A stretch of DNA of 64,000 nucleotides from an uncultured Candidatus Saccharibacteria bacterium. GTDB lineage: Bacteria; Patescibacteriota; CALEFQ01. Positions 1,967 through 61,358 of this stretch are shown one piece after another; positions within the stretch are counted from its first letter, which is position 1, and every line of letters starts with the position of its first letter. The stretch lies in NCBI GenBank assembly GCA_965230955.1, contig OZ246404.1, positions 161,184 to 225,183 on the forward strand, given 5' to 3'. A program made the translations under genes and the position numbers. The notes under the pieces are model-generated. The model saw only the letters and a program-made list of their open reading frames with translations. It did not search any database and was not told the origin of the DNA.

Positions 1967-1972
1967 GCAATA

Positions 1973-4960: not shown

Positions 4961-4970
4961 TTTTCTAATC

Positions 4971-7802
4971 GTGAAGTGTCTAATTTTTTTATTTCATCGT
5001 CTGTTTTTTTTCACCGCGGTGGTTGCGGGCGCTTTTGTAATTTGGTTTTGCTGCCCAATGTCGGCCAAAGCCGAGATTTTGACCTACCCATCTTTTAGCA
5101 CGCCTTCGGAAACCTCCGGACAGGAATGGAAAGTGGGGGAGGCGGCCGGCGGCGCGATTGTCATCGGATCATTGGAATTTGATGTGTCCGATTTGAGTCA
5201 AGCCAATCTCCTCAAGCACCAGATTTTCGCTATGTTTGATGCCTCTCAGCCTACTGCCTTTGCCAATCACGGTTACTGGATTCATTTTCGGAAACGCGCC
5301 GAGTTACCTTTCGACGGCCCGGGTTTCCAGTTTAAATTACAGGTGGATTGCTCGTGGGATGATGAGAACGTCAAAATCGATCCGGCGGGCTGGATGCCGG
5401 ATCGCACTTATCATTTTACTTTTTCTTGGGATCGCGATTCGACTAAGGTGGAAGTCTTTGATCCCGTCACCGGCCAGTCGGAAATATCGGAATTGCCTTT
5501 GCCCTCGCCCTTCAAAGCCCAGGATCAAGCGATTGTTTTCGGGGTGGCGGGTTTGGCCAATAGCGCCGCTTTTCCGGCCGAGCCGGGCGCGCATTATAGC
5601 AATATCACTTTGAATGCCCAAGAAGTCATCGCGGAGTTTGACGATTTCAATGGTTATCCGGCCTGTGAATTTGACGGAGGATGCGGGTGCGTCACCGAAG
5701 GCGATCCTTTTTCGGCTCCTTGTTCCGAGGCCAGCAGTACTCGGCCGCCGGAACCGGCCGATGATCCTTTCACCACTTCACTAAAGAGCGGACTGAAATG
5801 GAATTGGAAGATGAAAGATATGGCCGATTATTTATCCTGGCGCGAGAATAACGACCAAGATAATCCCGATGTCGAGATCCAGTCGATGACGCCGGGTTTG
5901 CCGCGCGGCGAAAAAGCGTCTTTTACCGCGGTTGCCCAGAATTACCGAACTCGAACAGATAATATATATTATTCCTGGTGCGTGCGCGACAGTTTGACCG
6001 GCAAAACCGCCAATTACAATAGCGTCATGGCCGGCGGTTTGTTGGCCGAAACATCCGATCTGAAACAGCCGGATGGTCATGGCCAGTGTTGCCAATGGAT
6101 CACTCGCCGGCCAACCGTCGATTTGGATGATACCAACGGCGACGGCCGGCCCGAAGGCGACGGGATGGATGATAATTGGGAGCGTCAGAAATTTGTCGGC
6201 CGGGAGGTGAATGGCCGGACTTATAATACGATTGAAGAAGTATTGCCGGATGATGATCCCGATCAGGACGGCACGGTGATGAATCGTTTCATCAATGCCG
6301 ATGAAGGCGTCCCGGTGACGGTGGTGGCCGGCCTGGTGGATTCGCTGGGAAATAAATATATCGCGGGCGGATCTGCGGGAAAACTTCGAAATGTGGAAGA
6401 ATATATTTTAGGAACCGATCCGCTCAACGGCGACACCGACGGCGACGGTTATGCCGACGAGGCGGATTATCTAGGCGAAGGCCAGAGCGTTCTGGAATTC
6501 GTGCCGGAGCAAGCGGTCGGAACCGGGTTTTACGAGGTCCAGGTTTCGACAGTGGGACTGAGCTCTCGGAAGAAAACTTATGTGGCTCTCGCTACGCGCC
6601 GAGTTTATCCCAGCCTCAAAGAACAGTTCAGTATTTCATTATCTTCCGATCGGAATGTGATCCCGGTGGGCTCAAATGATTCCACCAAAGTTAATTTGAT
6701 CGTCAATGTGCTGGGCGGCGATGCCAGTGGCGCTCAACTGGATTTCAGCTGGACTTTCCAGGGTGAAAGCGTCTGCGATGCGCAAAAATATCCAGAGTTG
6801 AGCAAGTTTTGCGATTTCAATCAGGGCCGGATATCTCTCGGAGGAAACGGCGCGCTGGCTTTTAAAGATTTACCGGGGATGGATCAGGTGCCGGAAGGGG
6901 GAGACTATATCATCGGTGTTCGAGCCGTCGATAGTGCGTCGCGCCAGGATGCCAGCGCCGAACTTCGTTTGAAAAAGGGCTCGGCTCTGACGTTGACGCC
7001 GGCTTGCGACGGAGCGCGCGACGAGACGGTCAGCGTGCCGGCCAACGGCGGATCGACAGTCATTTGCATCAGTGAATACGGAGTGGCCGATTTGGATCCA
7101 GCCGGTGCCGCTTTTAATTGGGCGATCGACGGTGTGATTGATCAGAATCAGAGCGGTCTGGGTCGGGACCATTTTACTTTATGGGCGACCAAGCCGGCCG
7201 GGTCAAGCCAACAGGTTGATTTAAAAATATTGTACGGCTCCAGTTTGGAGCGGGAATTGCTGGGATCAATCAACGTGCCGGTCGTCGGTGCGCTGGTAGA
7301 AATAAATAAGCCGGCGGATCGGATTGAGCCCGGCGATGGCAATGTTCCCCAAGCTACTCGCCTGATACGCGTGGCTCCGGGGGAGACGATTACTCTGGGC
7401 GCGCGCGCGGAGGCTTTTGGAGCAATTGATTCCTATCAGTGGTCGTGGCAGGCGGGCGAAAGCTCAAGTAGTACCGAAGGGGCAAACTCCGAATCTGATT
7501 TTACTTATTCCGTGCCGGTTGGGGCCTCGATAGGGGAAGTGATACCGGTCTCGGTCACGGCGCGCGGGCAAAATCAAACCGGCCGAATCACGGATGCCGG
7601 CGATACCATTTCGTTGCTGGTCGGTAGCGGTAGCGGGCGACTCGGCGCGGGAGGCGGATTGTCGCGGACCTTCGCCGCTTTATCGGCGGTGATACCGGCT
7701 CAGTATCGGGCGAGTTTTCAATTAATCGCACTGGTGGCCGGGGCACTGGGTGTGCTATTGGCCGGATTATATTTTTATAGTCGAATGACTTCCAAGAGAT
7801 GA
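4971..7802 (+). CDS. Giant surface protein paralog C (943 aa; GTG start) with the same core module and C-terminal anchor.
   Basis: Signal peptide. Conserved motifs NYRTRTDNIYYSWCVRD, GQCCQWITRRPTVDLDD, GDGMDDNWERQKFVGREVNG and GTDPLNGDTDGDGYADEADY. C-terminus reads IPAQYRASFQLIALVAGALGVLLAGLYFYSRMTSKR. Confidence 0.85.
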   Translation: MKCLIFLFHRLFFFTAVVAGAFVIWFCCPMSAKAEILTYPSFSTPSETSGQEWKVGEAAGGAIVIGSLEFDVSDLSQANLLKHQIFAMFDASQPTAFANHGYWIHFRKRAELPFDGPGFQFKLQVDCSWDDENVKIDPAGWMPDRTYHFTFSWDRDSTKVEVFDPVTGQSEISELPLPSPFKAQDQAIVFGVAGLANSAAFPAEPGAHYSNITLNAQEVIAEFDDFNGYPACEFDGGCGCVTEGDPFSAPCSEASSTRPPEPADDPFTTSLKSGLKWNWKMKDMADYLSWRENNDQDNPDVEIQSMTPGLPRGEKASFTAVAQNYRTRTDNIYYSWCVRDSLTGKTANYNSVMAGGLLAETSDLKQPDGHGQCCQWITRRPTVDLDDTNGDGRPEGDGMDDNWERQKFVGREVNGRTYNTIEEVLPDDDPDQDGTVMNRFINADEGVPVTVVAGLVDSLGNKYIAGGSAGKLRNVEEYILGTDPLNGDTDGDGYADEADYLGEGQSVLEFVPEQAVGTGFYEVQVSTVGLSSRKKTYVALATRRVYPSLKEQFSISLSSDRNVIPVGSNDSTKVNLIVNVLGGDASGAQLDFSWTFQGESVCDAQKYPELSKFCDFNQGRISLGGNGALAFKDLPGMDQVPEGGDYIIGVRAVDSASRQDASAELRLKKGSALTLTPACDGARDETVSVPANGGSTVICISEYGVADLDPAGAAFNWAIDGVIDQNQSGLGRDHFTLWATKPAGSSQQVDLKILYGSSLERELLGSINVPVVGALVEINKPADRIEPGDGNVPQATRLIRVAPGETITLGARAEAFGAIDSYQWSWQAGESSSSTEGANSESDFTYSVPVGASIGEVIPVSVTARGQNQTGRITDAGDTISLLVGSGSGRLGAGGGLSRTFAALSAVIPAQYRASFQLIALVAGALGVLLAGLYFYSRMTSKR

Positions 7803-12415: not shown

Positions 12416-12979
12416 ATGGCCCGCCTGCCCCGAAAATTTTACGAACGTTCGACTCTAAAAGTTGCTCCGGAGTTACTGGGGCATTTTTTAGTGAGACAAG
12501 GAACAGGTAACAAGGAACAAGTAACAAAAAGGAAAACGATAATTACGGATGTGGAGGCGTATGTGGGAGAGGGGGATCCGGCTTGCCATGCCAGTCGGGG
12601 ACAGACCGAGCGCAACAAAATTATGTATGGCCGGGCCGGCCACGCTTACGTTTATTTTATTTATGGAATGTATCACTGTTTGAATGTGGTTACGGAGAGG
12701 GAAGGTTTTCCGGCGGCAGTGCTAATACGCGGCGTAAGTAACAAGGAACAGGGAACAAGTAACAAAAGGGAAATATTAAATGGCCCGGGGAAGTTGTGTC
12801 GGGAACTGAGGATAACTAAGGGGCTAAATGGTACTGATTTAGTTATGGGGCAAGAACTGTGGATCGAAAAAAATCCCGAGCGAAATAATTTTTTACGATC
12901 TCGCAAAATCAAAAAAACCCCGCGCGTCGGTATTAGCGCGGGGCGAGATAAATTGTGGCGCTGGGTGATCGAATCGTAG
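12416..12979 (+). CDS. mpg: DNA-3-methyladenine glycosylase (Mpg/AAG family)
   Basis: Motifs VEAYVGEGDPACHASRGQTERNKIMYGRAGHAYVYFIYGMYHCLNVV...AAVLIRG...NGPGKLC. Two loop regions are encoded by GTAACAAG-type repeat DNA (see findings). Confidence 0.85.
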   Translation: MARLPRKFYERSTLKVAPELLGHFLVRQGTGNKEQVTKRKTIITDVEAYVGEGDPACHASRGQTERNKIMYGRAGHAYVYFIYGMYHCLNVVTEREGFPAAVLIRGVSNKEQGTSNKREILNGPGKLCRELRITKGLNGTDLVMGQELWIEKNPERNNFLRSRKIKKTPRVGISAGRDKLWRWVIES

Positions 12980-19020: not shown

Positions 19021-19086
19021 AGGAGAATTGTTTTAAAGTATTGTGTACTGCCGCTATTTTTGAAAATTTGCGTAGAGGGTGAGATT

Positions 19087-19126
19087 CGCCCGGTCATTCG
19101 GCCGGGCGCCGGGTCGAATGACCCGG
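19087..19126 (-). repeat. 40-nt GC-rich hairpin element (copy 1). It is inserted at the TTCG^AATC position of a partial tRNA-Ser(TGA) 3'-end copy.
   Basis: CCGGGTCATTCGACCCGGCGCCCGGCCGAATGACCGGGCG on the minus strand. It is preceded by TGGTTCG and followed by AATCTCACCCTCTACGC, a copy of the tRNA 3' end. Confidence 0.7.
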
Positions 19127-19133
19127 CGAACCA

Positions 19134-19223
19134 TGGCGGAGAGGGTGAGATTCGAACTCACGAGGCCCCGAAGGACCTGCCGGTTTTCAAGACCGGTGCC
19201 TTAGACCACTCAGCCACCTCTCC
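19134..19223 (-). tRNA. tRNA-Ser(TGA)
   Basis: Acceptor GGAGAGG/CCTCTCC, anticodon stem CCGGT/ACCGG with loop CTTGAAA, a long variable arm, T-arm GTGAG-TTCGAAT-CTCAC, and a 3' GCCA. Confidence 0.9.
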
Positions 19224-19378
19224 GGGAAAATTCAAAAATAAAAGCTAAAAATCTAAAAGAGTACTAAAATCTAAAAATTAAATACTTTAATATTTAGATT
19301 TTAAATTTTTTTTTAAACTTTTAAGCTTTAATTTTTAAAGCTTCGCCTATGGCGGGTCATGGCGGAGAGTAGAGGATT

Positions 19379-19418
19379 CGCCCGGCCATGCGTCCGGGCG
19401 CCGGGTCGAATGACCCGG
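19379..19418 (-). repeat. 40-nt GC-rich hairpin element (copy 2). It follows a partial duplicate of the tRNA-Ser(GCT) 3' end.
   Basis: CCGGGTCATTCGACCCGGCGCCCGGACGCATGGCCGGGCG on the minus strand. It is flanked by GATTATTTTGGTTCG and AATCCTCTACTCTCCGCCAT. Confidence 0.7.
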
Positions 19419-19433
19419 CGAACCAAAATAATC

Positions 19434-19526
19434 TGGCGGAGAGTAGAGGATTCGAACCTCTGCGGGGCTTTTGAGGTCCCCAACGGTTTAGCAAACCGTC
19501 GCCTTAAGCCACTCGGCCAACTCTCC
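19434..19526 (-). tRNA. tRNA-Ser(GCT)
   Basis: Acceptor GGAGAGT/ACTCTCC, anticodon stem ACGGT/ACCGT with loop TTGCTAA, a long variable arm, T-arm AGAGG-TTCGAAT-CCTCT, and a 3' GCCA. Confidence 0.9.
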
Positions 19527-19533
19527 ATGTCGA

Positions 19534-19800
19534 TTATGCATTTAAATTGAGTTCCTTCAAAATGTCTCGAATTTGCTGTCTAAGTAATCGTCTTCCTTCG
19601 GTGGTTTTTAGGAACATCTCTCGACGAGAAGCATCGCTTTTCTTTAGATAGGATTCCTCGTGAATTAGTTTGACAGGACGATGGTTTTTGGTTGAGGAAA
19701 CTTGTCCGTGCTGGTGCTCGGCAATTCTTCTTCGCAGATCATTGGTACTGCCTTTATAAAGACTATGATTACTTAATAAAAGAACATAGACGTGGAACAT
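19534..19800 (-). CDS. GIY-YIG nuclease family protein (88 aa)
   Basis: AAGGAGGG RBS. N-terminal VYVLLLSNHSLYKGSTNDLRRRIAEHQHG matches the GIY...YIG motif spacing of small standalone GIY-YIG proteins. Confidence 0.75.
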   Translation of the reverse strand: MFHVYVLLLSNHSLYKGSTNDLRRRIAEHQHGQVSSTKNHRPVKLIHEESYLKKSDASRREMFLKTTEGRRLLRQQIRDILKELNLNA

Positions 19801-19828
19801 GACGATCCCTCCTTGTTTTTAGTGGATT

Positions 19829-19868
19829 CGCCCGGTTATTCGACCGGGCGCCGGATCGGATGATCCGG
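19829..19868 (-). repeat. 40-nt GC-rich hairpin element (copy 3). It interrupts the T-loop of a tRNA-Ser(GCT) pseudogene.
   Basis: CCGGATCATCCGATCCGGCGCCCGGTCGAATAACCGGGCG sits directly after GGTTCG of the tRNA fragment and before AATCCAC. Confidence 0.7.
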
Positions 19869-19942
19869 CGAACCTCTGCGGGGCTTTTGATGTCCCCAAT
19901 GGTTTAGCAAACCGTCGCCTTAAGCCACTCGGCCAACTCTCC
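19869..19942 (-). pseudogene. tRNA-Ser(GCT) 5' fragment (about 95% identical to positions 1 to about 67 of the intact gene). It is truncated in the T-loop by the hairpin element.
   Basis: GGAGAGTTGGCCGAGTGGCTTAAGGCGACGGTTTGCTAAACCATTGGGGACATCAAAAGCCCCGCAGAGGTTCG, with no 3' acceptor strand. A further decayed 5' fragment carrying an internal insertion lies at about 20030..20096. Confidence 0.7.
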
Positions 19943-20160: not shown

Positions 20161-20297
20161 AAGTCAAAAGTCAAAGGTCAAAAGTCGAAAATATCCTAGC
20201 CCGGCTTTCTACCGGCTGATCACGCCCCACCGAAAGCGAGACTTCTTTATAGCCTTGATCGAGTAAAGCTGTCTTCTGACCTTTGACTTTTGACTTA
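20161..20297. repeat. Period-7/8 repeat hairpin, GTCAAAAG family. Its arms are separated by about 80 nt.
   Basis: AAGTCAAAAGTCAAAGGTCAAAAGTCG ... CTTCTGACCTTTGACTTTTGACTT. A GTCTTTGG-type unit sits just upstream (20098..20125). Confidence 0.7.
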
Positions 20298-20963
20298 TTT
20301 CGCACTATGCGCTACCACGATGGCATTAATGCTTTGGGGTTGGCCGTGAGCGAGAGCTTGGGCGCATTCTTGCAAAGTCGCGCCGGTAGTCAGCACGTCG
20401 TCAACCAAGAAAATAGTCTTTCCCTTGATAAGTCCCGGATCAATTAGCTTGAAAGCATCTTTTATATTCTGCTGACGCGCGGCGCGCCGGAGCGACATTT
20501 GTGGTTTGGTGTGCTGAATTCTGGCCAAAGCATTTATTACCATGGGAAATTTATAATGCCGTGCCAGTGCTTGTGCCATTAATTCCGACTGATTGAATCC
20601 TCGTTCTTTCTGGCGGGAGCGATGGAGCGGAACCGGGACAAAAATTGATTCCGGTGGAAACTCTCGCGTTTCCATTCGGGCGATAATTAATTCCGATAAA
20701 CGCCCGGCTAAATCCCGGACCATTTTGTATTTCATGGTATGGATGCTTTTGGCAATCAGCGGATCCAGGTAATCCGCCGCCACGAAAATATCCGTACAGC
20801 CTTTGATTTTTAGCGCGCTCGCTTTTCCGGGCGGAAATGGCGCTATCGTTCGGAGGCAGGCCTGGCAAATCCAGGCGCCTTCTTTTTTGCATCGCAGGCA
20901 CTCGATCGGAAAGAGCAGGTCGAGCAGAAAGCGATAAATCTCAACTAAAAATTTTGGTAACAT
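20295..20963 (-). CDS. comFC: ComF-family protein (phosphoribosyltransferase domain, competence ComFC-like)
   Basis: N-terminal CxxC...CxxC zinc finger, a PRTase fold, and a C-terminal LVDDVLTTGAT motif. Confidence 0.8.
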   Translation of the reverse strand: MLPKFLVEIYRFLLDLLFPIECLRCKKEGAWICQACLRTIAPFPPGKASALKIKGCTDIFVAADYLDPLIAKSIHTMKYKMVRDLAGRLSELIIARMETREFPPESIFVPVPLHRSRQKERGFNQSELMAQALARHYKFPMVINALARIQHTKPQMSLRRAARQQNIKDAFKLIDPGLIKGKTIFLVDDVLTTGATLQECAQALAHGQPQSINAIVVAHSAK

Positions 20964-20974
20964 AAAACCCTCCT

Positions 20975-21011
20975 AAAAATAAGTCAAAAGTCAAAGGTCA
21001 AAAGTCAAAAG
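20975..21011. repeat. GTCAAAAG-family direct-repeat arm. Nested GC hairpins follow it and likely form the clpC terminator.
   Basis: AAGTCAAAAGTCAAAGGTCAAAAGTCAAAAG, then GCCCCGCTTCGCGGGGC and CCGCCGTATCGGCGG. Confidence 0.6.
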
Positions 21012-21098
21012 TTGAGCCCCGCTTCGCGGGGCGAAACCCCGTACCCGAGTCCGCCGTATCGGCGGGCGAGTGGTATGGGGTCAAAAGTGGCGACAGAA

Positions 21099-28084: not shown

Positions 28085-29158
28085 TTGAATCGGGTGATTA
28101 TGTCTTGGTTCCAAACAAACAATTGCGTTGGAGTGGATGTTGGCACCGCCAGTGTCAAAGTTGTTGAATTGGAGCGGGGAGCGAATGGTCCGCGTCTGGC
28201 GACCTACGGTTTGATTGAATTGGAGAGCGATCTCGTCAGCAACAACTCGGCTGATATGCAACAGGTCGTTTCCCGGGCGATCACCGAAATTTCCAAACAA
28301 GCGCAAGTCCAATCAAAGCGGGCGGTTTCTTCTCTGCCCGGCTTTTCTGTTTTTACCTCTTTGATTGATCTGCCGAAAATGAATGACAAAGAGCTGTCTC
28401 AGGCCATCAAATACGAAGCCAAACGATACGTACCTATCTCGCTCGATAATATGGTTCTGGATTGGAAAGTGGTCAATGTTCGCGATGTTTCGACCAAAGA
28501 AGGTCTGGGCTCGACCAGCATGCAGGTTCTGCTCACCGCGGCGCCGAAAGCGCTGGTTGATCGCTATGTCGGAATTTTCCGCGGAACGGAGCTGAAATTA
28601 GTCGGACTGGAAACCGAAGCTTTTGCCCTGACGCGCTCGCTGGTGGGCAATGACCGCGCGCCAATTTTAGTGCTTGATATCGGCGCTTCCGCGACGGATG
28701 TGATCGTGGTGGCCAACGGGTTCCCGATTCTGAATCGGACGCTCGAAGTTGGCGGCCAAGTGCTGACCGAAACCATCGCCCAAAGCTTGAATGTCAGCCT
28801 GGGACGAGCGGAACAATTCAAGCGCGATTTGGGCGTGCGCCAGCACGGCCAAGCGATGCCGCCGGCGATCCAATCGGTGCTCAATCGTATTGTCAGCGAA
28901 GTGCAAAATACCCTGAAGCTTTATTACGCCAAGCAACAGCAAAAAATAGTGAAAATTGTTCTGACCGGGGGAGCGGCTCAGCTCGGCGGTTTATCAAATT
29001 ACCTGGAAAGTGAAATTAATATCAAAACTTTCATGGGTAATCCCTGGGCGAGAATTTCCTATCCGCAAAATCTGGCGGCCACGCTCCAGGAAATCGGGCC
29101 GAATTTCGCCGTTGCTATCGGTTTGGCGATGAGGGAGATGGTGGGGGCGCCTAAATAG
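28085..29158 (+). CDS. pilM: Type IV pilus assembly protein PilM (actin-like ATPase)
   Basis: GVDVGTASVKVVELE start and the architecture of the PilM/FtsA-like family. Confidence 0.85.
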   Translation: MNRVIMSWFQTNNCVGVDVGTASVKVVELERGANGPRLATYGLIELESDLVSNNSADMQQVVSRAITEISKQAQVQSKRAVSSLPGFSVFTSLIDLPKMNDKELSQAIKYEAKRYVPISLDNMVLDWKVVNVRDVSTKEGLGSTSMQVLLTAAPKALVDRYVGIFRGTELKLVGLETEAFALTRSLVGNDRAPILVLDIGASATDVIVVANGFPILNRTLEVGGQVLTETIAQSLNVSLGRAEQFKRDLGVRQHGQAMPPAIQSVLNRIVSEVQNTLKLYYAKQQQKIVKIVLTGGAAQLGGLSNYLESEINIKTFMGNPWARISYPQNLAATLQEIGPNFAVAIGLAMREMVGAPK

Positions 29159-32583: not shown

Positions 32584-32587
32584 AAGG

Positions 32588-32654
32588 GTCTTTGGTCTTT
32601 TGTCTTTAGTCTCGGCTAAAGACAAAGGACTAAAGACTAAAGACTAAAGACTAA
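32588..32654. repeat. GTCTTTGG-family period-7 inverted-repeat hairpin between pilB and pilT
   Basis: GTCTTTGGTCTTTTGTCTTTAGTC tcgg CTAAAGACAAAGGACTAAAGACTAAAGAC. Confidence 0.75.
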
Positions 32655-32657
32655 TTT

Positions 32658-33731: not shown

Positions 33732-33752
33732 TCAACGACGATAATAAGTATC

Positions 33753-33830
33753 AGGTAACATGTAACAAGTAACAAATAGGAAATTATCTATTCCATTTTG
33801 TTACCTGTTCCCTGTTACTTGTTACTTGAA
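33753..33830. repeat. GTAACAAG-family period-7 inverted-repeat hairpin between pilT and pilC
   Basis: GTAACATGTAACAAGTAACAAATAGGAAA ... TTTGTTACCTGTTCCCTGTTACTTGTTAC. Confidence 0.75.
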
Positions 33831-33838
33831 TACTCCAT

Positions 33839-35047
33839 ATGCCTATCTACAATTATCGCGCGAAAACTTTTAAGGGCGAAGTCCAGGCGGGGACCGTGGA
33901 TGCCGCCAGTCCGCAATCCGCGGCTGACGTGTTACGCAGCCATAATTTGGTCGTGGTGGAATTAAACGAAGAAGGCACGCAAGCCGGTCTACAGAGCCGT
34001 CTTAAGATTTTTGACCGGGTCCATCCGCGCGATATCGTGATTTTTTCCCGGCAACTCTCGACTATGATTTCCGCTACTTTGCCGCTGGTCCAGGGTTTGC
34101 GCGTCTTGTCTGAACAACAGCAAAATCCTCTTTTCAAAAAAATAATGGAAGATATTACCGCCCGGGTTGACGGCGGAGCGCGCCTGTCGGTGGCGATGAA
34201 CCAGTATCCGGATACTTTTTCCAATTTTTTTGTCAGCGTGGTGCAGACGGGGGAGACCAGCGGTAAATTGGATGAATCGCTGAATTACCTGGCCGATCAG
34301 CTGGAAAAAGACTACGACCTGACGTCGAAAATTCGCTCGGCCATGTATTACCCGGCCTTTATCCTCGGCGGGATCGTGGTGGTGGCGATTATCATGGTGA
34401 CGTATGTCATCCCGCAATTGGAATCAGTGCTGATCGGCATGCAGGCGAATCTGCCCTGGTCGACCAAAGCTCTGCTCGGCGCCAGCAATTTTTTCCGCGA
34501 CTATTGGTGGATCATTTTGATCGTCGGCGTTTTGATTTTCTGGTGGCTTCGATCCTGGAGCCGGACGATGGATGGGAAGCGGAAACTGGATCAAATGAAA
34601 CTGAAATTGCCTATTTTCGGCAAGCTTTTTCGCTGGGTCTATATCACCAGAATGTCGCGCACTCTCTACACCTTGCTCGTCGGCGGAGTGAAAATCATTG
34701 AAGCGCTCGGCGTCACGGCTTCGGTTATCGGCAATTCGGTCTACAGTGATATCATAAAAAAAGCGGCTCAGCGCGTGGAATCCGGCGATTCGATCTCGAC
34801 CGTCTTGCGCCAGGAAAAGGAAGTGCCGCTGATGGTCTCGCAGGTGATCGAAGTGGGGGAGAAAACCGGCAAACTGCCCTTTACCCTGCAAAAAATTTCC
34901 GAATTCTACGGCCGAGAGCTGGATAATGCCGTCAAAGGCTTGTCCTCTTTGCTGGAGCCGATAATTATGGTAGTATTAGGCATCGGTGTCGGGATTCTCA
35001 TGGCCGCTGTTATTATGCCTATCTACAATATTAGTTCGATGATGTAG
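33839..35047 (+). CDS. pilC: Type IV pilus platform protein PilC (GspF family)
   Basis: Two T2SSF repeats and three TM segments. Confidence 0.9.
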   Translation: MPIYNYRAKTFKGEVQAGTVDAASPQSAADVLRSHNLVVVELNEEGTQAGLQSRLKIFDRVHPRDIVIFSRQLSTMISATLPLVQGLRVLSEQQQNPLFKKIMEDITARVDGGARLSVAMNQYPDTFSNFFVSVVQTGETSGKLDESLNYLADQLEKDYDLTSKIRSAMYYPAFILGGIVVVAIIMVTYVIPQLESVLIGMQANLPWSTKALLGASNFFRDYWWIILIVGVLIFWWLRSWSRTMDGKRKLDQMKLKLPIFGKLFRWVYITRMSRTLYTLLVGGVKIIEALGVTASVIGNSVYSDIIKKAAQRVESGDSISTVLRQEKEVPLMVSQVIEVGEKTGKLPFTLQKISEFYGRELDNAVKGLSSLLEPIIMVVLGIGVGILMAAVIMPIYNISSMM

Positions 35048-35490
35048 TAACAAGTAACAGGTAACAGAGAACAAGTAACAAATCGGAAAACTATTAATAT
35101 AAAAGGGAGGGATATGAGGGAGGGGATTAGGTTTAGAAGCAGAAAATTTGCTTTGATGGTCATAAGGCTGGTGGCAGATTTCTTAAAAAACAAAGAAGCA
35201 TATATCATTGGCAGTCAGTTGATCCGATCGGCGACATCTATCGGCGCTAATTTGGCGGAAGCGTATGTGGCACGTTCCCGTTCGGAATTTCGGAGTATAA
35301 ATAATATTGCTCTTCGCGAGAGCGAAGAAACTAAGTACTGGTTGGAACTAGCCCGAGATGCATTTCTCGTCGACGAATCAAAGCTTGCCCCGGTTCTCCG
35401 AGAGGCTAAAGAAATTTGCAAAATCTTGGCTACAATTGTTATAAAATGTAAAAACTAATTCCTATTTGTTACTTGTTACATGTTACTTGC
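35047..35490. mobile_element. Candidate cassette: a four-helix-bundle protein gene bracketed by GTAACAAG-family inverted repeats, inserted between pilC and pilA.
   Basis: Left arm GTAACAAGTAACAGGTAACAGAGAACAAGTAACAAATCGGAAAA (35047..35095). The right arm is the reverse complement, GCAAGTAACATGTAACAAGTAACAAATAGGAATT (35457..35490). The same arm pair with only a 20-nt loop occurs at 33753..33830. Confidence 0.45.
35114..35458 (+). CDS. Four-helix-bundle protein (23S rRNA intervening-sequence protein / Avd-like family)
   Basis: LIRSATSIGANLAEAYVARSRSEFRSINNIALRESEETKYWLELARDA matches the hallmark region of this family. Confidence 0.8.
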   Translation: MREGIRFRSRKFALMVIRLVADFLKNKEAYIIGSQLIRSATSIGANLAEAYVARSRSEFRSINNIALRESEETKYWLELARDAFLVDESKLAPVLREAKEICKILATIVIKCKN

Positions 35491-35534: not shown

Positions 35535-35960
35535 ATGTCAAAACAAAAAGGTTTTACGCTCATTGAGCTCTTGGTCGTCATCGCCATTATCGCCATCTTG
35601 GCGGCTGTGGTTTTGGTGGCTTTGGGTAATGCCGCTCAGTCGGCACGCGATTCCACCCGGAAGGCCGACCTCAACAGTGTTATGACTGCTATGGAGTTAT
35701 ATAACACTACTAATGGCGCTTTCCCGGCGGCCGGTGTTTGTGCGGCGAATGGAGTCATTGCAGCTGCATCAGGCGGCACGATTTGTAACGGCTCTCCGTT
35801 ATCTGATGGCACTACCACCTATATCGCTGTGTTACCAACCGATCCTAATGGTACTCAAACTTATACTTGGACCGGTGATGCGACAACCTATCAACTTGAT
35901 GTGGGTTTGGAAGGTGGCGGAACATTCCGCTGCACGAATGGTTCTTGTTACACCCCATAA
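35535..35960 (+). CDS. pilA: Type IV major pilin (prepilin with class III signal)
   Basis: MSKQKGFTLIELLVVIAIIAILAA N-terminus, strong RBS, and a C-terminal Cys pair. Confidence 0.9.
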   Translation: MSKQKGFTLIELLVVIAIIAILAAVVLVALGNAAQSARDSTRKADLNSVMTAMELYNTTNGAFPAAGVCAANGVIAAASGGTICNGSPLSDGTTTYIAVLPTDPNGTQTYTWTGDATTYQLDVGLEGGGTFRCTNGSCYTP

Positions 35961-36101
35961 GTTTATAGTTTGCTGATCTACCCCCACGCTCGAAGGTCGA
36001 GAGTGGGGGCGATGAGCAAATATTATTATCGCGGGAGCAATGTTAACTTCGGCGGAACTCGATCCGCCGAAGCCCCGTTTCGGGGCGAAGGTAGATAAAT
36101 T

Positions 36102-36887
36102 ATGATCTCGCTTTGGTCAGTTATCGTTTTTTTTCTCGGCCTCTGTGTGGGCAGTTTTTTAAATGCGCTGATTTTTCGGCTACATTCCGGCGAATCGGTG
36201 GCTAAGGGGCGCTCGAAGTGCCCCAAATGCCAACACCAACTCAGTGACTGGGATTTAATTCCGGTCATTAGCTTTATCGCCCTGCGCGGAAAGTGCCGTT
36301 ATTGCCACGCCCCGATTTCTTGGCAGTACCCGACAGTGGAATTGGTGACGGCGATTTTATTTGTCCTGGTCTATCTGTATCTGATACCTTCGACGCAAGT
36401 TGGGACGATGACCGGGATTTTTTATTTGGCCTTTCTTTGGTTTATCGTCAGTGTGTCGATTATCGTTTTTGTCTACGACCTGAAGCATTACTTGATTCTC
36501 GACAAAGTCATTTATCCCGCTCTGGCGGTGACTTTTATCGCCGTTTTATTTTTGCCGCAATTTGATTTTTGGCGCGCGCTGATCGGGAGCGGGGTGGTTG
36601 GCGGGTTTTTCCTAATTTTGGTATTATTATCAAAAGAGACTTGGATGGGTTGGGGGGATGTGAAGCTGGGATTTTTGCTGGGCTTGGTGGTCGGCTGGCC
36701 GCTCTGTCTGCCTCTGTTCTTGATCGCTTTCGTCGGCGGCTCGGCCGTCGCGCTTCTCCTGATGGGTCTGAAACTAAAAGGCTGGAAAGACTCGGTGCCG
36801 TTCGGCACGATGCTCACTGCGGCAGCGGTGATAACACTATTTGTGGGGCAAAAATTGATTGATTGGTACTTTGGACTATTGGTATAA
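36102..36887 (+). CDS. pilD: Prepilin peptidase PilD (A24 family)
   Basis: Tetracysteine CPKC...CRYC, a DUF1232-like N-domain, and A24 peptidase TM helices. Confidence 0.9.
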   Translation: MISLWSVIVFFLGLCVGSFLNALIFRLHSGESVAKGRSKCPKCQHQLSDWDLIPVISFIALRGKCRYCHAPISWQYPTVELVTAILFVLVYLYLIPSTQVGTMTGIFYLAFLWFIVSVSIIVFVYDLKHYLILDKVIYPALAVTFIAVLFLPQFDFWRALIGSGVVGGFFLILVLLSKETWMGWGDVKLGFLLGLVVGWPLCLPLFLIAFVGGSAVALLLMGLKLKGWKDSVPFGTMLTAAAVITLFVGQKLIDWYFGLLV

Positions 36888-36889
36888 GT

Positions 36890-36960
36890 TAAAAGTCAAA
36901 AATCAAAAGTCAAAAGTTTCTTGTTGCTACTTTTGACCTTTGACCTTTGACTTTTGACTT
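36890..36960. repeat. GTCAAAAG-family period-7 inverted-repeat hairpin between pilD and the minor pilins
   Basis: AAGTCAAAAATCAAAAGTCAAAAG tttcttgttgctac TTTTGACCTTTGACCTTTGACTTTTGACTT. Confidence 0.75.
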
Positions 36961-37542
36961 ATGTCAAAAGTTTCCCATCAACGCGGTTTTACCCTGATCG
37001 AGATGCTCGTCACCATCTCTATTTTGGTTTTGTTGAGCGCGATGGTGGTGGTCAATTTCCGCGATGCCGAAAAGGGGAACGCGGTGCGGCTCGGGGCGGA
37101 GCAGTTTGTCGGTGTGTTACGCGAGGCGCAGAATTACGCTTTGGCGCAAAAGCGGGTAGTGGTCGGAAAAGACAGTATTGTACCGGCCGGCTACGGCGTT
37201 TATATCAAACTGGTGAAAGGCCAGACTACGGAAGCCGTTTTTTTCGCCGACACCGGGCCGAAGCTCGGTTTGTATGAGCCGAAAGAAGACCTCGAGATCC
37301 GCACGGAAGAGCTCCCGCGGTACGCGGTTTTCTCTTCGTTACTTGGCGGGGCCACGGATGAATTAAGCCTTATTTTTTCTCCTCCGGACGGCGCTGTAAA
37401 TTTCGGAAATCTCCCGGCGGAATTATCGGCCACGGAGGTAGCGGTGGTGATTCAGCTTTATCTGGGCGGCGAGGTCGGCGGTACCGCCAAGAGCGTCATT
37501 GTAAATTCACTGACTTCATTGATTGAAATAAAAGATTTCTAA
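36961..37542 (+). CDS. Minor pilin / pseudopilin (GspH/FimT-like)
   Basis: Prepilin motif QRGFTLIEMLVTISILVLL. Confidence 0.8.
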   Translation: MSKVSHQRGFTLIEMLVTISILVLLSAMVVVNFRDAEKGNAVRLGAEQFVGVLREAQNYALAQKRVVVGKDSIVPAGYGVYIKLVKGQTTEAVFFADTGPKLGLYEPKEDLEIRTEELPRYAVFSSLLGGATDELSLIFSPPDGAVNFGNLPAELSATEVAVVIQLYLGGEVGGTAKSVIVNSLTSLIEIKDF

Positions 37543-38111: not shown

Positions 38112-38172
38112 AGAGTCTTTGGTCGTTGGTCTTTGGTCTTTCGCGAAAGACTAAAGACTAAAGACTAAAGAC
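38112..38172. repeat. GTCTTTGG-family period-7 inverted-repeat hairpin between minor pilin genes
   Basis: AGTCTTTGGTCGTTGGTCTTTGGTCTTTCGCGAAAGACTAAAGACTAAAGACTAAAGAC. Confidence 0.75.
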
Positions 38173-38174
38173 AG

Positions 38175-38705
38175 ATGCTCTCTAATCCCAAACAATCCGG
38201 CTTTACCCTCATCGAAGCGCTGGTATCGGTCGCGATTTTTGCCGTGGTGGTCTCGATGGCGGCGGTTTTGTTTTTGTCCACTTCCAATGCCCAGCGTAAG
38301 GCGACCAACCAGGAAAAAGTTATGCGCGAAGTGCGCCAGACGATGGAATCTATCTCCCGGCTGGTGCGAATGTCGGCGGTTGATTATGATCGATATGACG
38401 CGGAGGGCATGGAAATCAGCGGGGGACCATCGGTGCTCTACCTGATGAATAACAACGCGCCCGTCAGTTTTTCGCTGGTGGGAGGCCAGATTTTTTATGA
38501 GCGCGGCGGAGCCGGCGGCGTCATGACCGGGGAAGATATCGACGTTACAAACTTGCAATTTTTTATCGGGCCGGCGGATCCGGACACCAGTACCGATTGG
38601 CCGACCCAAGTAACGGTCTTGCTGACTACGGAGCGCGAAGGCGAGCGCGGTTCGGCTGATATTTTGAAAACTCAGACGACTATCGTGACCAGGCAATATG
38701 AATAA
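38175..38705 (+). CDS. Minor pilin (PilW-like)
   Basis: Prepilin motif KQSGFTLIEALVSVAIFAVVV. Confidence 0.75.
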   Translation: MLSNPKQSGFTLIEALVSVAIFAVVVSMAAVLFLSTSNAQRKATNQEKVMREVRQTMESISRLVRMSAVDYDRYDAEGMEISGGPSVLYLMNNNAPVSFSLVGGQIFYERGGAGGVMTGEDIDVTNLQFFIGPADPDTSTDWPTQVTVLLTTEREGERGSADILKTQTTIVTRQYE

Positions 38706-40513: not shown

Positions 40514-40529
40514 GGGGGGAATTGCTATA

Positions 40530-40635
40530 ATAAGTAACAGGTAACAAGGAACAAGGAACAAATAGGAAAAGATTCATTCCAATTTGTTACCTGTTACCTG
40601 TTACTTGTTACCTGTCATCGTTACCGGGTACTTGC
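40530..40635. repeat. GTAACAAG-family period-7 inverted-repeat hairpin
   Basis: GTAACAGGTAACAAGGAACAAGGAACAAATAGGAAAAG ... TTTGTTACCTGTTACCTGTTACTTGTTACCTG. Confidence 0.75.
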
Positions 40636-44814: not shown

Positions 44815-44816
44815 TA

Positions 44817-44886
44817 AGTCAAAAATCAAAAGTCAAAAGTTAAGGACGATTCACTTTTGACTTTTGACTTTTAACTTTTGACTTTT
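44817..44886. repeat. GTCAAAAG-family period-7 inverted-repeat hairpin
   Basis: AAGTCAAAAATCAAAAGTCAAAAG ... CTTTTGACTTTTGACTTTTAACTTTTGACTTTT. Confidence 0.75.
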
Positions 44887-45552
44887 ATGATTAAGGTTAC
44901 CGTCAAAGATTTGGAGCGCGATGACATCGCCATGACTTATATCAATCGCGCCAATGAATACTTGAATGTATTGGGTTTTACCAGCCACGGCTTGCGCCAC
45001 GTTAAACTGGCTTCGGATATCGCCCGCAATGTTCTGTTGCGCTTGGGCTATTCCGCCGACGAAGCGGAGCTGGCGGCGGTAGCGGCTTTTTTGCACGATA
45101 TCGGGAATGTCTGCGGCCGAGATCATCACGAACAATCCGGAGCGTTGATGGCCAAAGCGGTGCTTGATCGGATGGGTTTTGAAGCCAAATACACGGCGGA
45201 AGTGATGTTGGCGATTGGTAATCACGAAGAGCGCACCGGGGCGCCCGTCAGTTTGACCAGCGCGGCCGTGATTTTGGCGGATAAAACCGATGTGCATCGC
45301 AGTCGCGTGCAGACCAAAGATCCGCTGGATTTCGATATCCACGACAAAGTAAATTACGCCGTGACTAAATCATTTTTGGATGTCAATAAAGCCCAGCGTT
45401 CTATTTCTCTGGAACTGACGATCGATACCGAAGTGGCGGGGATTGTCGAGTACTTCGAAATCTTTTTGGATCGCATGAAAATGGCTCGAATGGCGGCTCA
45501 GTTTTTGAAAACCAAATTCGAGTTGGAGATCAACGGAACGAAGTTAATGTAA
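44887..45552 (+). CDS. HD-domain phosphohydrolase inserted between gatC and gatA
   Basis: H...HD motif (HGLRHVKLASDIA ... AAFLHDIGN). Confidence 0.7.
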   Translation: MIKVTVKDLERDDIAMTYINRANEYLNVLGFTSHGLRHVKLASDIARNVLLRLGYSADEAELAAVAAFLHDIGNVCGRDHHEQSGALMAKAVLDRMGFEAKYTAEVMLAIGNHEERTGAPVSLTSAAVILADKTDVHRSRVQTKDPLDFDIHDKVNYAVTKSFLDVNKAQRSISLELTIDTEVAGIVEYFEIFLDRMKMARMAAQFLKTKFELEINGTKLM

Positions 45553-60276: not shown

Positions 60277-60472
60277 GATAATAATCCTCCTTATGTTTCA
60301 GCATTGTTAACGAACAATCCCCACCTTGGGGATTTTCTATTGGTAGGGTATGTTTTTTGATTGTTATTGTCAATGGTAGTATCAAATGTAGGGGCGCCCC
60401 CGTGTGGGCGCCCTTAAACATTTCAAAAAAAGCCCGACTCTAAAAGAAGAGTCGGGCGACGATGTTTTGTGT

Positions 60473-61186: not shown

Positions 61187-61358
61187 GTGATGTTCTCCTT
61201 TGCTTCCAGTATTGTTAACGAACAATCCCCAGCTTGGGGATTTTCTATTGGTAGGGTAGGTTTTTTGATCGTTATTGTCAAGGGATGCCCCCACACTCAA
61301 GCAACTTGAATGTGGGGGCCCCTACACATTTTATTGAAATTACATTATAATAAAATCC

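Follow-up and report, generated by a model that had tools for sequence, protein, structure and literature searches.

Between pilC and pilA of the pilus operon in the 64-kb stretch of DNA analysed here (hereafter the window), a small gene coding for a four-helix-bundle (4HB) protein is enclosed by inverted repeat arms. The locus raises the question of whether this gene is a passenger of a mobile hairpin, the accessory of a diversity-generating retroelement (DGR), an ordinary pilus gene or a part of the element that surrounds it. An earlier note had read it as an Avd-like gene carried as cargo by a filled hairpin element, an interpretation that is partly supported by the results presented below.

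Structure of the cassette at the pilC-pilA junction

The arrangement itself, a 4HB gene with inverted arrays of tandem GTAACAN heptamers between pilC and pilA, is confirmed. Its parts and the host genes are the following:

33839..35047, + strand: pilC (T2SSF, from Pfam annotation), upstream host gene
35047..35088, + strand: left (5') arm, five tandem heptamers (GTAACAA-type, family a) and an inner ATCGGAA
35089..35113, + strand: 5' leader of the 4HB gene, in which GGGAGGG (35105-35111) forms a strong Shine-Dalgarno sequence
35114..35458, + strand: 4HB gene of the S23p/IVP family (PF05635, TIGR02436), 114 aa, under purifying selection
35459..35489, + strand: right (3') arm, TTCCTAT and inverted heptamers (TTGTTAC-type), beginning immediately 3' of the 4HB stop codon
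35490..35534, + strand: conserved pilA upstream region, outside the element, TTTAAA-N5-TTTAAATA ... GAAAGGGGGTGAG, near-invariant in all close relatives while the arms vary
35535..35960, + strand: pilA-type pilin gene (N_methyl motif), downstream host gene

The first base of the left arm (35047) is the final base of the pilC stop codon, and its heptamers read, in order, GTAACAA, GTAACAG, GTAACAG, AGAACAA and GTAACAA, followed by ATCGGAA; the sequence of the right arm (35459-35489) is TTCCTATTTGTTACTTGTTACATGTTACTTG. As the earlier note had observed, the ORF lies between inverted arms: over 31 nt these are 84% complementary, with 370 nt between them and a flank-pairing score of z = 9.1 against shuffles. 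Joined by a short loop, the arms alone fold at -31.8 kcal/mol (z = -8), and they are paired in the minimum-energy fold of the entire 481-nt cassette. The fold of the entire cassette is only marginally more stable than those of shuffles (z = -1.8), the arm stem itself being strong.

A profile search upheld the assignment of the ORF to the four-helix-bundle family, with matches above cut-off to PF05635 (E 4.7e-23, 81.9 bits, cut-off 33.8) and to TIGR02436, 'four helix bundle protein' (E 2.8e-27, 95.1 bits, cut-off 24). The AlphaFold model of the protein consists of four helices (pLDDT 96.4), and the top structures retrieved with it by Foldseek were 2RLD and 2GSC (TM 0.85-0.87), the former being matched by the 4HB family profile at E = 7.6e-38. 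The protein has a pI of 9.7 and no recognisable catalytic domain. It carries the polar motif R38-xxx-S42-xxx-N46-xx-E49, after the motif (G)xxRxxxSxxxNxxE (Lin et al.; Zhang and Ye), of which RxxxSxxxNxxE is invariant in the family alignment; the first motif position is Q35 in this protein and is invariant in alignment A1.

Heptamer hairpins without a gene

The motif GTAACANGTAACA, allowing at most one mismatch, occurs 20 times in the window for 0.10 expected. The arms of the cassette belong to one of at least three families of heptamer hairpins that are present as ORF-less copies at intergenic junctions of this genome. The hairpins and single arms of the window, the hairpins having no strand assigned, are:

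12496..12545, + strand: single family-a arm without a partner, in frame within the coding sequence of Mpg (PF02245), sharing 84% identity with the cassette's left end along 50 nt
12734..12783, + strand: second single family-a arm without a partner, in frame within the same Mpg gene
32585..32657: ORF-less family-c hairpin at the pilB-pilT junction, GGTCTTT / AAAGACT, T-rich arm first
33746..33827: hairpin of family a between pilT and pilC, ORF-less, with 37-nt arms 81% complementary and 8 nt apart, -32 kcal/mol, z = -6.5
36886..36965: ORF-less family-b hairpin at the pilD-pilin junction, AAGTCAA / TTGACTT
38114..38177: hairpin of family c, ORF-less, with a pilin-like gene on either side
40527..40618: another hairpin of family a, ORF-less, located between divergent genes and sharing 88% identity with 33741-33828 along 88 nt
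44816..44887: ORF-less family-b hairpin with heptamer arms

The heptamer hairpins of the window fold at -27 to -39 kcal/mol. The hairpin at the pilT-pilC junction is the 'empty' version that the earlier note had pointed out; between its left arm and the cassette's right arm, complementarity reaches 97%. Only the ORF-less hairpins have the outward form of a MITE, being short, non-coding, multi-copy and bounded by terminal inverted repeats; family a has two 88-nt copies, 88% identical, and two half copies. One family-b hairpin has an 85-nt non-coding insert, and a ComF-like gene is enclosed by family-b arms. Only one 4HB gene is present within the 64 kb.

At permissive thresholds, Rfam matched the hairpins only to sub-threshold eukaryotic miRNA precursors, that is, to generic long stems. 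A sigma-70 promoter scan gave no convincing match at the arms and PADLOC no defence-system match. Read by eye, the arm borders had no consistent target-site duplication, and no transposase was identified. AAAACTA, which occurs at both inner borders of the cassette, was rejected as a target-site duplication: it is not conserved in the related loci L004 and L006 and it overlaps the last codons. The idea that a stop-bearing heptamer repeated three times ends translation in all frames was also abandoned, since it is true of GTAACAA and false for AAGTCAA.

Inheritance and turnover at the junction

Relatives of the junction were gathered by a protein search with PilC combined with contig look-ups; a metagenome scan with PilC yielded only relatives 26-33% identical, which are of no use for an empty-site test. 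All five relatives with a PilC about 85% identical, or with a closely related 4HB protein, have a 4HB gene between pilC and pilA. Among them are L004, L006, L007 and L105, in which a strong G-rich Shine-Dalgarno sequence also precedes the 4HB start codon. The dN/dS of the gene is 0.07-0.13 at a dS of 1.1-1.2, similar to that of PilC (0.07). By sequence comparison, the 4HB gene has been inherited vertically under purifying selection within this close clade. Because it occupies the junction in every close relative found and dS exceeds 1, it was not recently inserted upstream of pilA. Presence of the gene here in all relatives is one of the observations that the earlier note had named as refuting its reading, and within the close clade it applies.

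The arms have a different history. The units beside 4HB genes that are orthologous (53-85% identical) are of three kinds, GTAACAA, GTCAAAA and GGCAAAA; between relatives, the arms have been replaced or homogenised around a gene that stayed in place. The hairpins at other pil junctions vary as well: the pilT-pilC junction of L004 also has a hairpin, and the one at the pilD-pilin junction belongs to family a in L004 and L006 and to family b in L007. In clade B, where PilC is 70% identical, the same junction holds a 4HB gene only 25-35% identical, with other arms. More distant relatives have an ORF-less hairpin between pilC and pilA (L098 and L102) or no heptamer hairpin at all (L100), and a 58%-identical 4HB gene is located at ftsE-ftsX. 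Over the long term, these comparisons indicate, the junction has switched between states: one type of 4HB gene, a second type, an ORF-less hairpin and no heptamer hairpin. Junctions without the cassette, for which the earlier note had proposed a search, therefore do exist among relatives. Its picture of a filled hairpin element dropped upstream of the major pilin gene is borne out as to the filled and empty states and fails as to a recent arrival.

It might be argued that the 4HB gene is simply a conserved pilus-operon gene that came to lie between two standard terminator or attenuator hairpins. The gene is syntenic in close relatives, being present in all five, and about half of the pil-cluster junctions have a heptamer hairpin. 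These hairpins, however, are made of three different unit families (GTAACAA, AAGTCAA and AAAGACT), so that the second refuting observation named in the earlier note, arms that are simply the normal hairpins of every pil junction, is only half borne out. The stems are A/U-rich and about 30 bp long, and a terminator scan that covered four of the hairpins reported none of them as terminator-like. Moreover, among more distant pil operons some are without the gene (L098, L100, L102) and others have another type of 4HB, and outside pil operons and in other phyla 4HB genes are bracketed in the same way, as described in the next section. We regard such a coincidence as extremely improbable.

Heptamer arrays around 4HB genes in many phyla

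The family comprises 27,718 representatives at 50% clustering. A set of 74 4HB loci of many phyla, taken with a sampling pattern, was compared with neighbouring ORFs as controls. An inverted-repeat score of at least 30 was reached by 50 of the 74 4HB loci (68%) and by 11 of 311 neighbouring ORFs (3.5%; Mann-Whitney p = 9e-26). The best self-similarity lag was 7 or 14 in 61/78 upstream and 67/78 downstream flanks (about 80%) vs 35/275 control segments (13%). At 33 of 46 loci the units on the two sides were reverse complements of each other (at a Hamming distance of 0-1), compared with 24% of cross-locus pairs. Enclosure by inverted heptamer arrays is thus the norm for PF05635 genes across many phyla. 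Cultured Nostoc punctiforme has the same layout of a gene between heptamer arms on pNPUN01, the 4HB genes of Nostoc and Rivularia loci have heptamer flanks, and 20 of the 37 plasmid matches to the family come from Nostoc. Coxiella IVS excepted, no paper tying PF05635, TIGR02436 or 23S_rRNA_IVP to flanking heptamer arrays was found in the searchable literature.

At loci other than this one, arrays far from the 4HB gene had the same unit as its flanks in 39% of cases (11% in the comparison with other loci), and near-identical units (AAAATTC, AAAAGTC) occur beside very different 4HB sequences across phyla. A blastn search gave no 23S rRNA match beside about 95 4HB loci or in the window, the query being an approximate 23S segment used with no positive control. 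The 4HB genes are co-oriented with their neighbours in 82-85% of cases for a background of 77%, too small a difference to argue that they depend on read-through transcription, and this argument was dropped.

Arm mismatches at 54 loci included 25 G.U, 35 A.C and 164 others, with no sense-strand wobble signature, and the G.U pairs of family-c hairpins lie on the + strand in the window and on the opposite one in L004, which is inconsistent. Given the lack of a G.U excess between arms, selection on pairing at the RNA level is not demonstrable. Judged by their sequences, the arms rather resemble arrays in which unit variants have been shuffled, and a role at the DNA level or in protein binding would fit equally well.

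These results bear directly on the proposal that a mobile hairpin, MITE-like, picked up an unrelated gene as a passenger and then inserted in front of pilA, such hairpins being able to carry arbitrary cargo. Filled and empty states at the orthologous junction in different lineages, the dispersed ORF-less copies that are 88% identical, the insert and the ComF-like gene between family-b arms, and the inverted repeats at 3.5% of the non-4HB neighbours would all be expected of it. Yet the enclosed gene is anything but arbitrary, since the bracket is specific to PF05635 in many phyla. The classical rRNA intervening sequence with an S23p ORF has the same layout, the gene has been at this junction under purifying selection since before a divergence with dS above 1, and no target-site duplication was identified. 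The earlier view of the gene as mere cargo of a generic hairpin does not survive the comparison with neighbouring ORFs, and we consider this explanation improbable.

Relationship to Avd and to diversity-generating retroelements

The earlier statement that the window contains no reverse transcriptase (RT) and no template/variable repeat (TR/VR) pair stands. No YxDD motif is found in any open frame of at least 200 aa within the window, and the sole direct repeat long enough for a TR/VR pair (7967/8988) extends over 182 nt at 77% identity, its mismatches being of every type and not adenine-specific. Around the relatives, no RVT family appears in the precomputed Pfam annotations of called genes, an incomplete set that leaves several products without a Pfam assignment.

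The description of the gene as Avd-like holds for the fold and not for the sequence. The model superposes on Avd (4DWL, 8UB7) with a TM of 0.77 and 9% identity in Foldseek; both proteins are basic; Avd is a pentameric barrel, and the entries of the family members 2RLD and 2GSC likewise contain five chains each. In contrast, there is no detectable sequence similarity, bAvd (4DWL) remaining undetected by the family profile even at E <= 10. No RT, TR or VR lies near the 4HB gene, and the flanks of the prototype avd gene of phage BPP-1 (n = 1) have no heptamer arms, with a score of 22 vs 16.7 +/- 2.7 in shuffles and no lag-7 signal. The 114-aa protein belongs to the S23p/IVP branch, not to the Avd branch.

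DGRs are often present in CPR genomes, and the protein could be imagined as the accessory of such an element at another site of the genome, whose target might be a pilin or a surface protein. Besides the resemblance in fold, this idea can call on PF05635 being the most frequent Pfam family close to DGR RTs (PMC10053308). It is set against the absence of an RT-like YxDD motif and of an adenine-specific repeat pair in the 64 kb, of RVT families in the annotations around relatives, of any profile match to bAvd and of heptamer arms at the BPP-1 gene, and we give it very little credence.

A proposed intervening-sequence-type element in a pilus operon

Our best explanation, to which we give a little better than an even chance, is that the cassette (35047-35489) is an intervening-sequence-type element that resides in a pilus-operon spacer instead of an rRNA helix. 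The layout is family-wide and is the same in ORF-bearing 23S rRNA intervening sequences (IVS), which makes it more likely that the 4HB gene is the element's own gene than that it is a passenger, the ORF-less hairpins being its gene-less relatives.

RNase III excision of rRNA IVS has been shown for Coxiella, Salmonella and Leptospira (PMC4990558), and by analogy with these elements we infer a similar processing of the pilC-pilA cassette. Transcription of the operon across the element would allow the arms to pair into an imperfect duplex of about 30 bp, which RNase III would cut. The cut would free an RNA of about 400 nt still bearing the Shine-Dalgarno sequence, which lies inside the loop and would thus remain on an excised RNA, together with the ORF. 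It would also split the pilBTC message from that of pilA, which has its own conserved upstream region. By analogy with its structural relative Avd, an RNA stem-loop binder, the basic 4HB protein is probably pentameric and has structured nucleic acid as its most likely target, possibly these very hairpins. Avd has been described as a positively charged pentamer 'similar to S23 ribosomal proteins' that binds RNA stem-loops in the DGR RNP (bioRxiv 10.1101/2023.10.23.563531), and XCC0516 of Xanthomonas (2GSC) as a homopentamer whose subunits are four-helix bundles (Lin et al. 2006, as reported in PMC4990558). The ORF-less hairpins would correspond to the element minus its gene, much as rRNA intervening sequences without an ORF, or MITEs, do.

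Several observations go against this explanation. The mismatches between arms carry no wobble signature, the fold of the entire cassette barely improves on shuffles, a signature search found no rnc gene in the window, and the protein has no recognisable catalytic domain. The ORF-less hairpin at 40527-40618 lies between divergent genes, where operon processing makes little sense, and some arms stand alone, two of them (12496, 12734) within a coding sequence.

Compatible with the intervening-sequence-type reading is a partnership of the REPIN/RAYT kind, in which the 4HB protein would be a trans-acting factor that binds heptamer arrays as DNA, hairpin DNA or RNA and maintains, spreads or regulates them, the ORF-less hairpins being its dependants or operators. 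The architecture is that of a RAYT between REPs, with one 4HB gene in 64 kb flanked by a repeat of which there are at least two full and two half ORF-less copies. The family-wide association with heptamers, the sharing of the local flank unit by distant arrays (39% vs 11%), the invariant RxxxSxxxNxxE, the presence of family members in organisms known for heptamer repeats (Nostoc, with its plasmid matches, and Xanthomonas, the source of 2GSC) and the binding of stem-loop RNA by Avd all point the same way. On the other hand, a 4HB fold with no catalytic domain is by itself unable to cut or join nucleic acid. Orthologous 4HB genes have three different flank units, units such as AAAATTC and AAAAGTC adjoin very different 4HB sequences, and three hairpin families in the window face a single 4HB gene. 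Three units and three hairpin families for one 4HB gene leave a simple specificity of one protein for one repeat unsupported. Overall, we regard such a partnership as possible, though doubtful.

A broader and equally tentative proposal is that PF05635 4HB genes and tandem-heptamer hairpins form one widespread and so far unrecognised system. It would include the STRR of Nostoc and other cyanobacteria, the GGGAATC arrays of Xanthomonas and the operon-junction hairpins of CPR and Bacteroidota. The gene with its inverted arrays would be the 'autonomous' form and the rRNA IVS a special case; the pentamer would bind heptamer stems, and thousands of ORF-less hairpins would depend on it.

Significance

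To our knowledge, the S23p/IVP family has been without a function since its discovery in rRNA intervening sequences 30 years ago, and the only characterised relative we know of is the essential DGR protein Avd. Heptanucleotide arrays have been a separate puzzle in cyanobacteria, Xanthomonas and other bacteria. Pairing the two as one module, in rRNA and in operons, makes both testable. If the one-system proposal is true, it would provide a function for an orphan family and an origin for heptamer repeats, and would suggest that the Avd of DGRs was recruited from an RNA-hairpin-binding ancestor. The hairpin-rich intergenic structure of the very small CPR genomes may be partly explained as well. 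For the window, the prediction is a processing site that uncouples the pilin mRNA from the pilus-assembly genes. IVP genes have also been found wedged within cas operons (PMC3936711), and their occurrence inside cas, pil or other operons calls for caution before they are read as functional members of those systems.

Comparison with known systems

Like the hairpins described here, REP/REPIN elements and MITEs such as the Correia elements of Neisseria are short, dispersed, intergenic and present in many copies, and RAYT is likewise a single-copy gene between inverted copies of a dispersed repeat. Correia hairpins at operon junctions can be RNase III substrates. The gene enclosed here differs from RAYT in coding for a 114-aa helical bundle (PF05635) with no HUH Y1 or transposase features, and the repeats differ from REPINs and MITEs in being periodic at 7 nt, with no target-site duplications seen.

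The STRR and heptameric arrays of Nostoc (GGGGAYT) and Xanthomonas (GGGAATC) are also intergenic tandem 7-nt units within operons, often in inverted pairs that form hairpins; X. campestris has 70 cases of two sites in convergent (inverted) orientation (PMC4692102). Their positions are conserved between relatives while the number of repeats is variable (PMC4692102, PMC2670836). The units of the window are A/T-rich (GTAACAA, AAGTCAA, AAAGACT) and not G-rich, canonical STRR units are absent, and the host is Patescibacteria-like instead of a heterocystous cyanobacterium, the homologues being labelled Patescibacteria in their source records. In the searchable literature, no gene associated with STRR-type repeats has been described.

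The closest comparison is with the ORF-containing 23S rRNA IVS of Leptospira, Coxiella burnetii and Brucella. The cassette differs from these in lying between two protein genes of a pilus operon, outside an rRNA helix (Rfam gave no rRNA match in 32-41 kb of the window), and its arms consist wholly of heptamer arrays common to dispersed ORF-less hairpins. It also has a strong ribosome-binding site in the loop and a gene under clear purifying selection, whereas the ORF of the Coxiella IVS is decaying and its putative Shine-Dalgarno sequence is removed by cleavage. In Coxiella, a 28-bp terminal stem surrounds the S23p ORF, tandem heptamers (GACAGAT) in a strain-variable number lie upstream of it, and the RNase III cut falls in the stem, at the first of the repeats (PMC4990558). 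23S_rRNA_IVP is also encoded in CPR rRNA insertions. The cassette shares with the rRNA elements the gene family, PF05635 being named after them, a size of about 430-450 nt, an ORF in the loop of a long terminal-inverted-repeat stem (31-nt arms, 84% complementary, -31.8 kcal/mol), tandem heptamers adjoining the ORF, as in Coxiella, and the coexistence of short ORF-less versions.

A four-helix-bundle gene between inverted heptamer arms

The gene and the bracketing inverted arms that the earlier note had placed between pilC and pilA are confirmed, the arms being 31 nt long and 84% complementary. Gene and arms form a cassette (35047-35489) in which the first base of the left arm is the last base of the pilC stop codon, and the right arm directly abuts the stop codon of the four-helix-bundle (4HB) gene.

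33839..35047: pilC (T2SSF), upstream neighbour
35047-35088: left arm, five tandem heptamers (GTAACAA GTAACAG GTAACAG AGAACAA GTAACAA), then ATCGGAA
35114..35458, + strand: 4HB gene, 114 aa, PF05635 and TIGR02436 profile matches
35459-35489: right arm, TTCCTAT, then inverted heptamers
35535..35960: pilin gene with N-methylation motif, downstream neighbour

Pairing of the 130-nt flanks exceeds that of shuffles (z = 9.1), folded by themselves the arms reach -31.8 kcal/mol (z = -8), and they pair with each other in the minimum-energy structure of the entire cassette. The window contains 20 occurrences of the motif GTAACANGTAACA, where 0.1 would be expected. The pilA-pilD spacer (35980-36090) carries a G+C-rich stem-loop, CCCCCAC...GTGGGGG, which is kept in two related loci (L006 940-990, L007 1495-1550); unlike the heptamer hairpins in kind, it is probably the pilin terminator.

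The protein matches PF05635 (23S_rRNA_IVP; E 4.7e-23, 81.9 bits, cut-off 33.8) and TIGR02436 ('four helix bundle protein'; E 2.8e-27), in a family of 27,718 representatives after 50% clustering. Its AlphaFold model, built with 52 homologues, has four long helices (pLDDT 96.4). The top structural match is BT_0352 (2RLD, 'S23 ribosomal protein family'; TM 0.87, 34% identity), with XCC0516 (2GSC, TM 0.87) equally among the best; Avd of diversity-generating retroelements (DGRs; 4DWL, 8UB7) ranks next (TM 0.77, 9% identity). The family profile recovers 2RLD (E 7.6e-38) and 2GSC and misses Avd, even with the threshold relaxed to E <= 10. This makes the protein a genuine member of the S23p/IVP branch, and the Avd-like character claimed earlier holds for the fold and fails for the sequence family. 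The exclusion of a DGR was correct.

Family-wide occurrence of the heptamer bracket

A family-alignment scan of species-representative genomes gave 80 loci from Patescibacteria, Bacteroidota, Cyanobacteria, Planctomycetota, Gammaproteobacteria, Ignavibacteria, Clostridia and others. When the 130 nt upstream were scored against the reverse complement of the 130 nt downstream, 50 of 74 4HB genes reached the threshold of 30, against 11 of 311 neighbouring ORFs at the same loci (p = 9e-26). Self-similarity peaked at a lag of 7 (or 14) in 61 of 78 upstream flanks and 67 of 78 downstream ones; among control segments the count was 35 of 275. The upstream unit was the reverse complement of the downstream one (0-1 differences) in 33 of 46 loci, compared with 24% of cross-locus pairs. 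The unit differs between lineages, AAAATTC and AAAAGTC being commonest; CAGTTAT, GAAGGGT, AATTAAG, CACAATT and others occur. Upstream arms are A-rich (53% A), and the arms take up the spacers, with adjacent ORFs at a median distance of 61-66 nt. Our main result is that the inverted-heptamer bracket is a property of the 4HB protein family, for which the window cassette itself is ordinary. The prototype DGR avd, that of phage BPP-1 (n = 1), has no such arms.

Cultured organisms show the pattern too: on plasmid pNPUN01 of Nostoc punctiforme, GGAGGTC / GACCTCC heptamers stand on either side of an annotated four-helix-bundle gene, and on pANACY.01 of Anabaena cylindrica (L109) a 4HB gene lies between cas2 and cas1, on the opposite strand, amid AAGTAAA arrays. 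Some genomes have 2-4 4HB genes per 8-kb locus (L064, L076, L035, L085). Such loci, among them L064 (Candidatus Laterigemmans; four genes in ~3 kb on one strand, 3959-7042), show that the family can cluster locally.

A resident gene with changing arms

The earlier note had counted presence of the gene in all relatives, regardless of hairpins, against its own reading; close relatives do carry it here, though never without hairpins. The gene lies between pilC and pilA in L006 (85% identical), L004 (76%), L007 (62%) and L105 (58%), in every case with arms; PilC is 85% identical among the window, L004 and L007. Within this close clade the gene is old at its position and vertically resident. For the window, L004 and L006, dN/dS is 0.07-0.13 (dS 1.1-1.2), against 0.07 for PilC. 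A strong G-rich Shine-Dalgarno sequence precedes the start codon in the window and all four relatives, and the segment from the right arm to the pilA start is nearly invariant. The arm units differ with the register kept: GTAACAA in the window, L004 and L006, GTCAAAA in L007, GGCAAAA in L105. Taken together, these sequence comparisons show a static, functional gene whose arms are replaced or homogenised in concert on both sides.

Further afield we compared genomes with 68-71% identical PilC and a 49%-identical outgroup (L102). Three of them (L094, L096 and L101, clade B) carry another PF05635 gene at the junction (118-143 aa, 25-35% identical to the window protein) within TAGAAAN-type arms; L098 has an ORF-less hairpin there, the outgroup an ORF-less heptamer hairpin, and L100 no heptamer hairpin. 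The window protein is nearer (50-58%) to 4HB proteins of other contexts than to the clade-B protein of its own junction; one of them, P0007 (58%), is encoded between ftsE and ftsX in the layout [A-arm][T-arm]-gene-[T-arm]. These junction states and homologues elsewhere show that 4HB cassettes change location and that the filled and empty forms proposed in the earlier note are related on an evolutionary scale; a recent drop-in is contradicted by the four close relatives. The interpretation in the earlier note is partly supported: the passenger dropped upstream of pilA should be replaced by a resident 4HB element of the type of the rRNA intervening sequence (IVS), with gene-less relatives at other junctions.

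L094 (6040-6660) mirrors the P0007 layout, [A-arm]-gene-[A-arm][T-arm], its ~55-nt upstream arm recurring as a direct repeat at the gene's 3' end, and L103 (260-745) also has an extra arm, [A-arm][T-arm]-gene-[T-arm]. Both look like a gene with one arm beside a complete hairpin, and may carry clues to cassette formation.

ORF-less hairpins and stray arms

The window holds at least three heptamer-hairpin families.

Family a (GTAACAA): cassette arms; 33746-33827; 40527-40614; single arms at 12496 and 12734
Family b (AAGTCAA): 36886-36965 (pilD-pilin); 44816-44887; 20161-20297; 20979-21013
Family c (GGTCTTT / AAAGACT, T-rich arm first): 32585-32657 (pilB-pilT); 38114-38177; partial copy at 29157

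The empty hairpin reported earlier is real: at 33746-33827, 37-nt arms stand 8 nt apart (-32 kcal/mol), and the copy at 40527-40614 is 88% identical to it across 88 nt. Folding energies of the six complete hairpins lie between -27 and -39 kcal/mol (z -5.7 to -10.7). Hairpins are not peculiar to the pilC-pilA junction, occurring at about half of the pil-cluster junctions. Relatives have them at matching junctions, but the family may change: the pilD-pilin junction has family b in the window and L007, family a in L004 and L006.

The T-rich arm also comes first in the ORF-less hairpin of L098 (6210-6295), whereas nearly all 4HB genes have the A-rich arm first. Polarity reads identically on either strand, so this is a real class difference.

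Two partnerless left-type family-a arms (12496-12545, 84% identical to the cassette's left end over 50 nt, and 12734-12783) lie in frame within the methylpurine-DNA glycosylase gene Mpg (12416..12979, +; one full-length PF02245 match, E 1.8e-57), encoding GTGNKEQVTKRKT and VSNKEQGTSNKREI. The coding sequence has apparently absorbed them with no gain in protein length over the Pfam profile.

Family-b arms (A-rich 20161-20190, T-rich 20274-20297) surround an 85-nt non-coding insert that directly follows the stop codon of a ComF-like gene (20295..20963, minus strand), and a single A-rich arm (20979-21013) adjoins the start of the gene. Inverted arms thus bracket a non-4HB gene, with the T-rich one first on the gene's sense strand; the window has no other hint of such an arrangement.

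Other repeats differ in kind. Across 19070-19942, two tRNA-Ser genes (19134-19223 and 19434-19526, minus) are interleaved with a palindromic 64-nt repeat, G+C-rich and present three times (19070, 19362, 19812); a 74-nt part of the second gene (19453-19526) recurs at 19869-19942 with 97% identity, where no tRNA is called. Three ~3-kb tandem units (319-6484) have in common segments of 47-95 nt, apparently coding for acidic DxDxDG-type (calcium-binding-like) repeats, and probably represent three paralogous large surface proteins. A 90-nt segment (60287-60376) containing the short G+C-rich inverted repeat CCCCACCTTGGGG recurs 908 nt away (61195-61284, 90% identity) and may be a regulatory or leader region common to two paralogous genes.

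Proposed working

By its anatomy, the cassette is most likely an IVS transplanted into an mRNA operon. Read-through transcription of pilBTC would put both arms on a single RNA, where they would pair into an imperfect duplex of ~30 bp. RNase III cleavage of this duplex would free a ~400-nt RNA keeping the Shine-Dalgarno sequence and the 4HB ORF, and would split the upstream message from pilA. A conserved region of its own precedes pilA.

Structured nucleic acid, perhaps in the form of these hairpins, is the probable target of the 4HB protein. The four proteins compared are basic (pI 9.4-10.2), 2RLD and 2GSC each have five chains per entry, the Xanthomonas XCC0516 (2GSC) is a homopentamer of four-helix bundles according to Lin et al. 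2006 as cited in PMC4990558, and the Avd pentamer grips RNA stem-loops (bioRxiv 10.1101/2023.10.23.563531).

A purely RNA-level role of the arms is opposed by mismatches without wobble asymmetry (25 G.U, 35 A.C, 164 other), by unpaired single arms, some within coding sequence, and by one hairpin between divergent genes. The main rival, which could hold alongside the IVS reading, is that the 4HB protein and the heptamer hairpins are partners as in REPIN/RAYT systems, with the protein acting in trans; the protein has no catalytic domain, and orthologous 4HB genes are surrounded by different repeat units, both of which argue against it.

Comparison with known systems

PF05635 is named for ORFs within 23S rRNA IVSs, and rRNA insertions of CPR bacteria likewise encode 23S_rRNA_IVP proteins (bioRxiv 10.1101/2024.02.27.582315). 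In Xanthomonas and Nostoc, heptameric arrays often form inverted pairs whose intergenic location is conserved (PMC4692102), and STRR hairpins occur between cyanobacterial operon genes (PMC2670836); both were described without an associated gene. In the literature we searched, which includes only a minority of subscription journals, no paper connects PF05635 genes outside rRNA with inverted heptamer arrays around them, and the family-wide architecture with its link to heptamer repeats, the interesting part of this work, appears previously undescribed. IVP genes within cas operons have been interpreted as a functional association (PMC3936711); such 23S_rRNA_IVP-CRISPR-Cas associations may merely reflect elements wedging into operon spacers.

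The IVS of Coxiella burnetii has 428 nt, with a 28-bp terminal stem enclosing the S23p ORF and strain-variable numbers of tandem GACAGAT heptamers just upstream of it; RNase III cuts the stem at the first repeat (Warrier et al., PMC4990558). Those authors cite an older idea that the IVS is mobile and its ORF serves mobility. The anatomy of the window cassette matches that of an rRNA IVS, but it is located in an mRNA operon.
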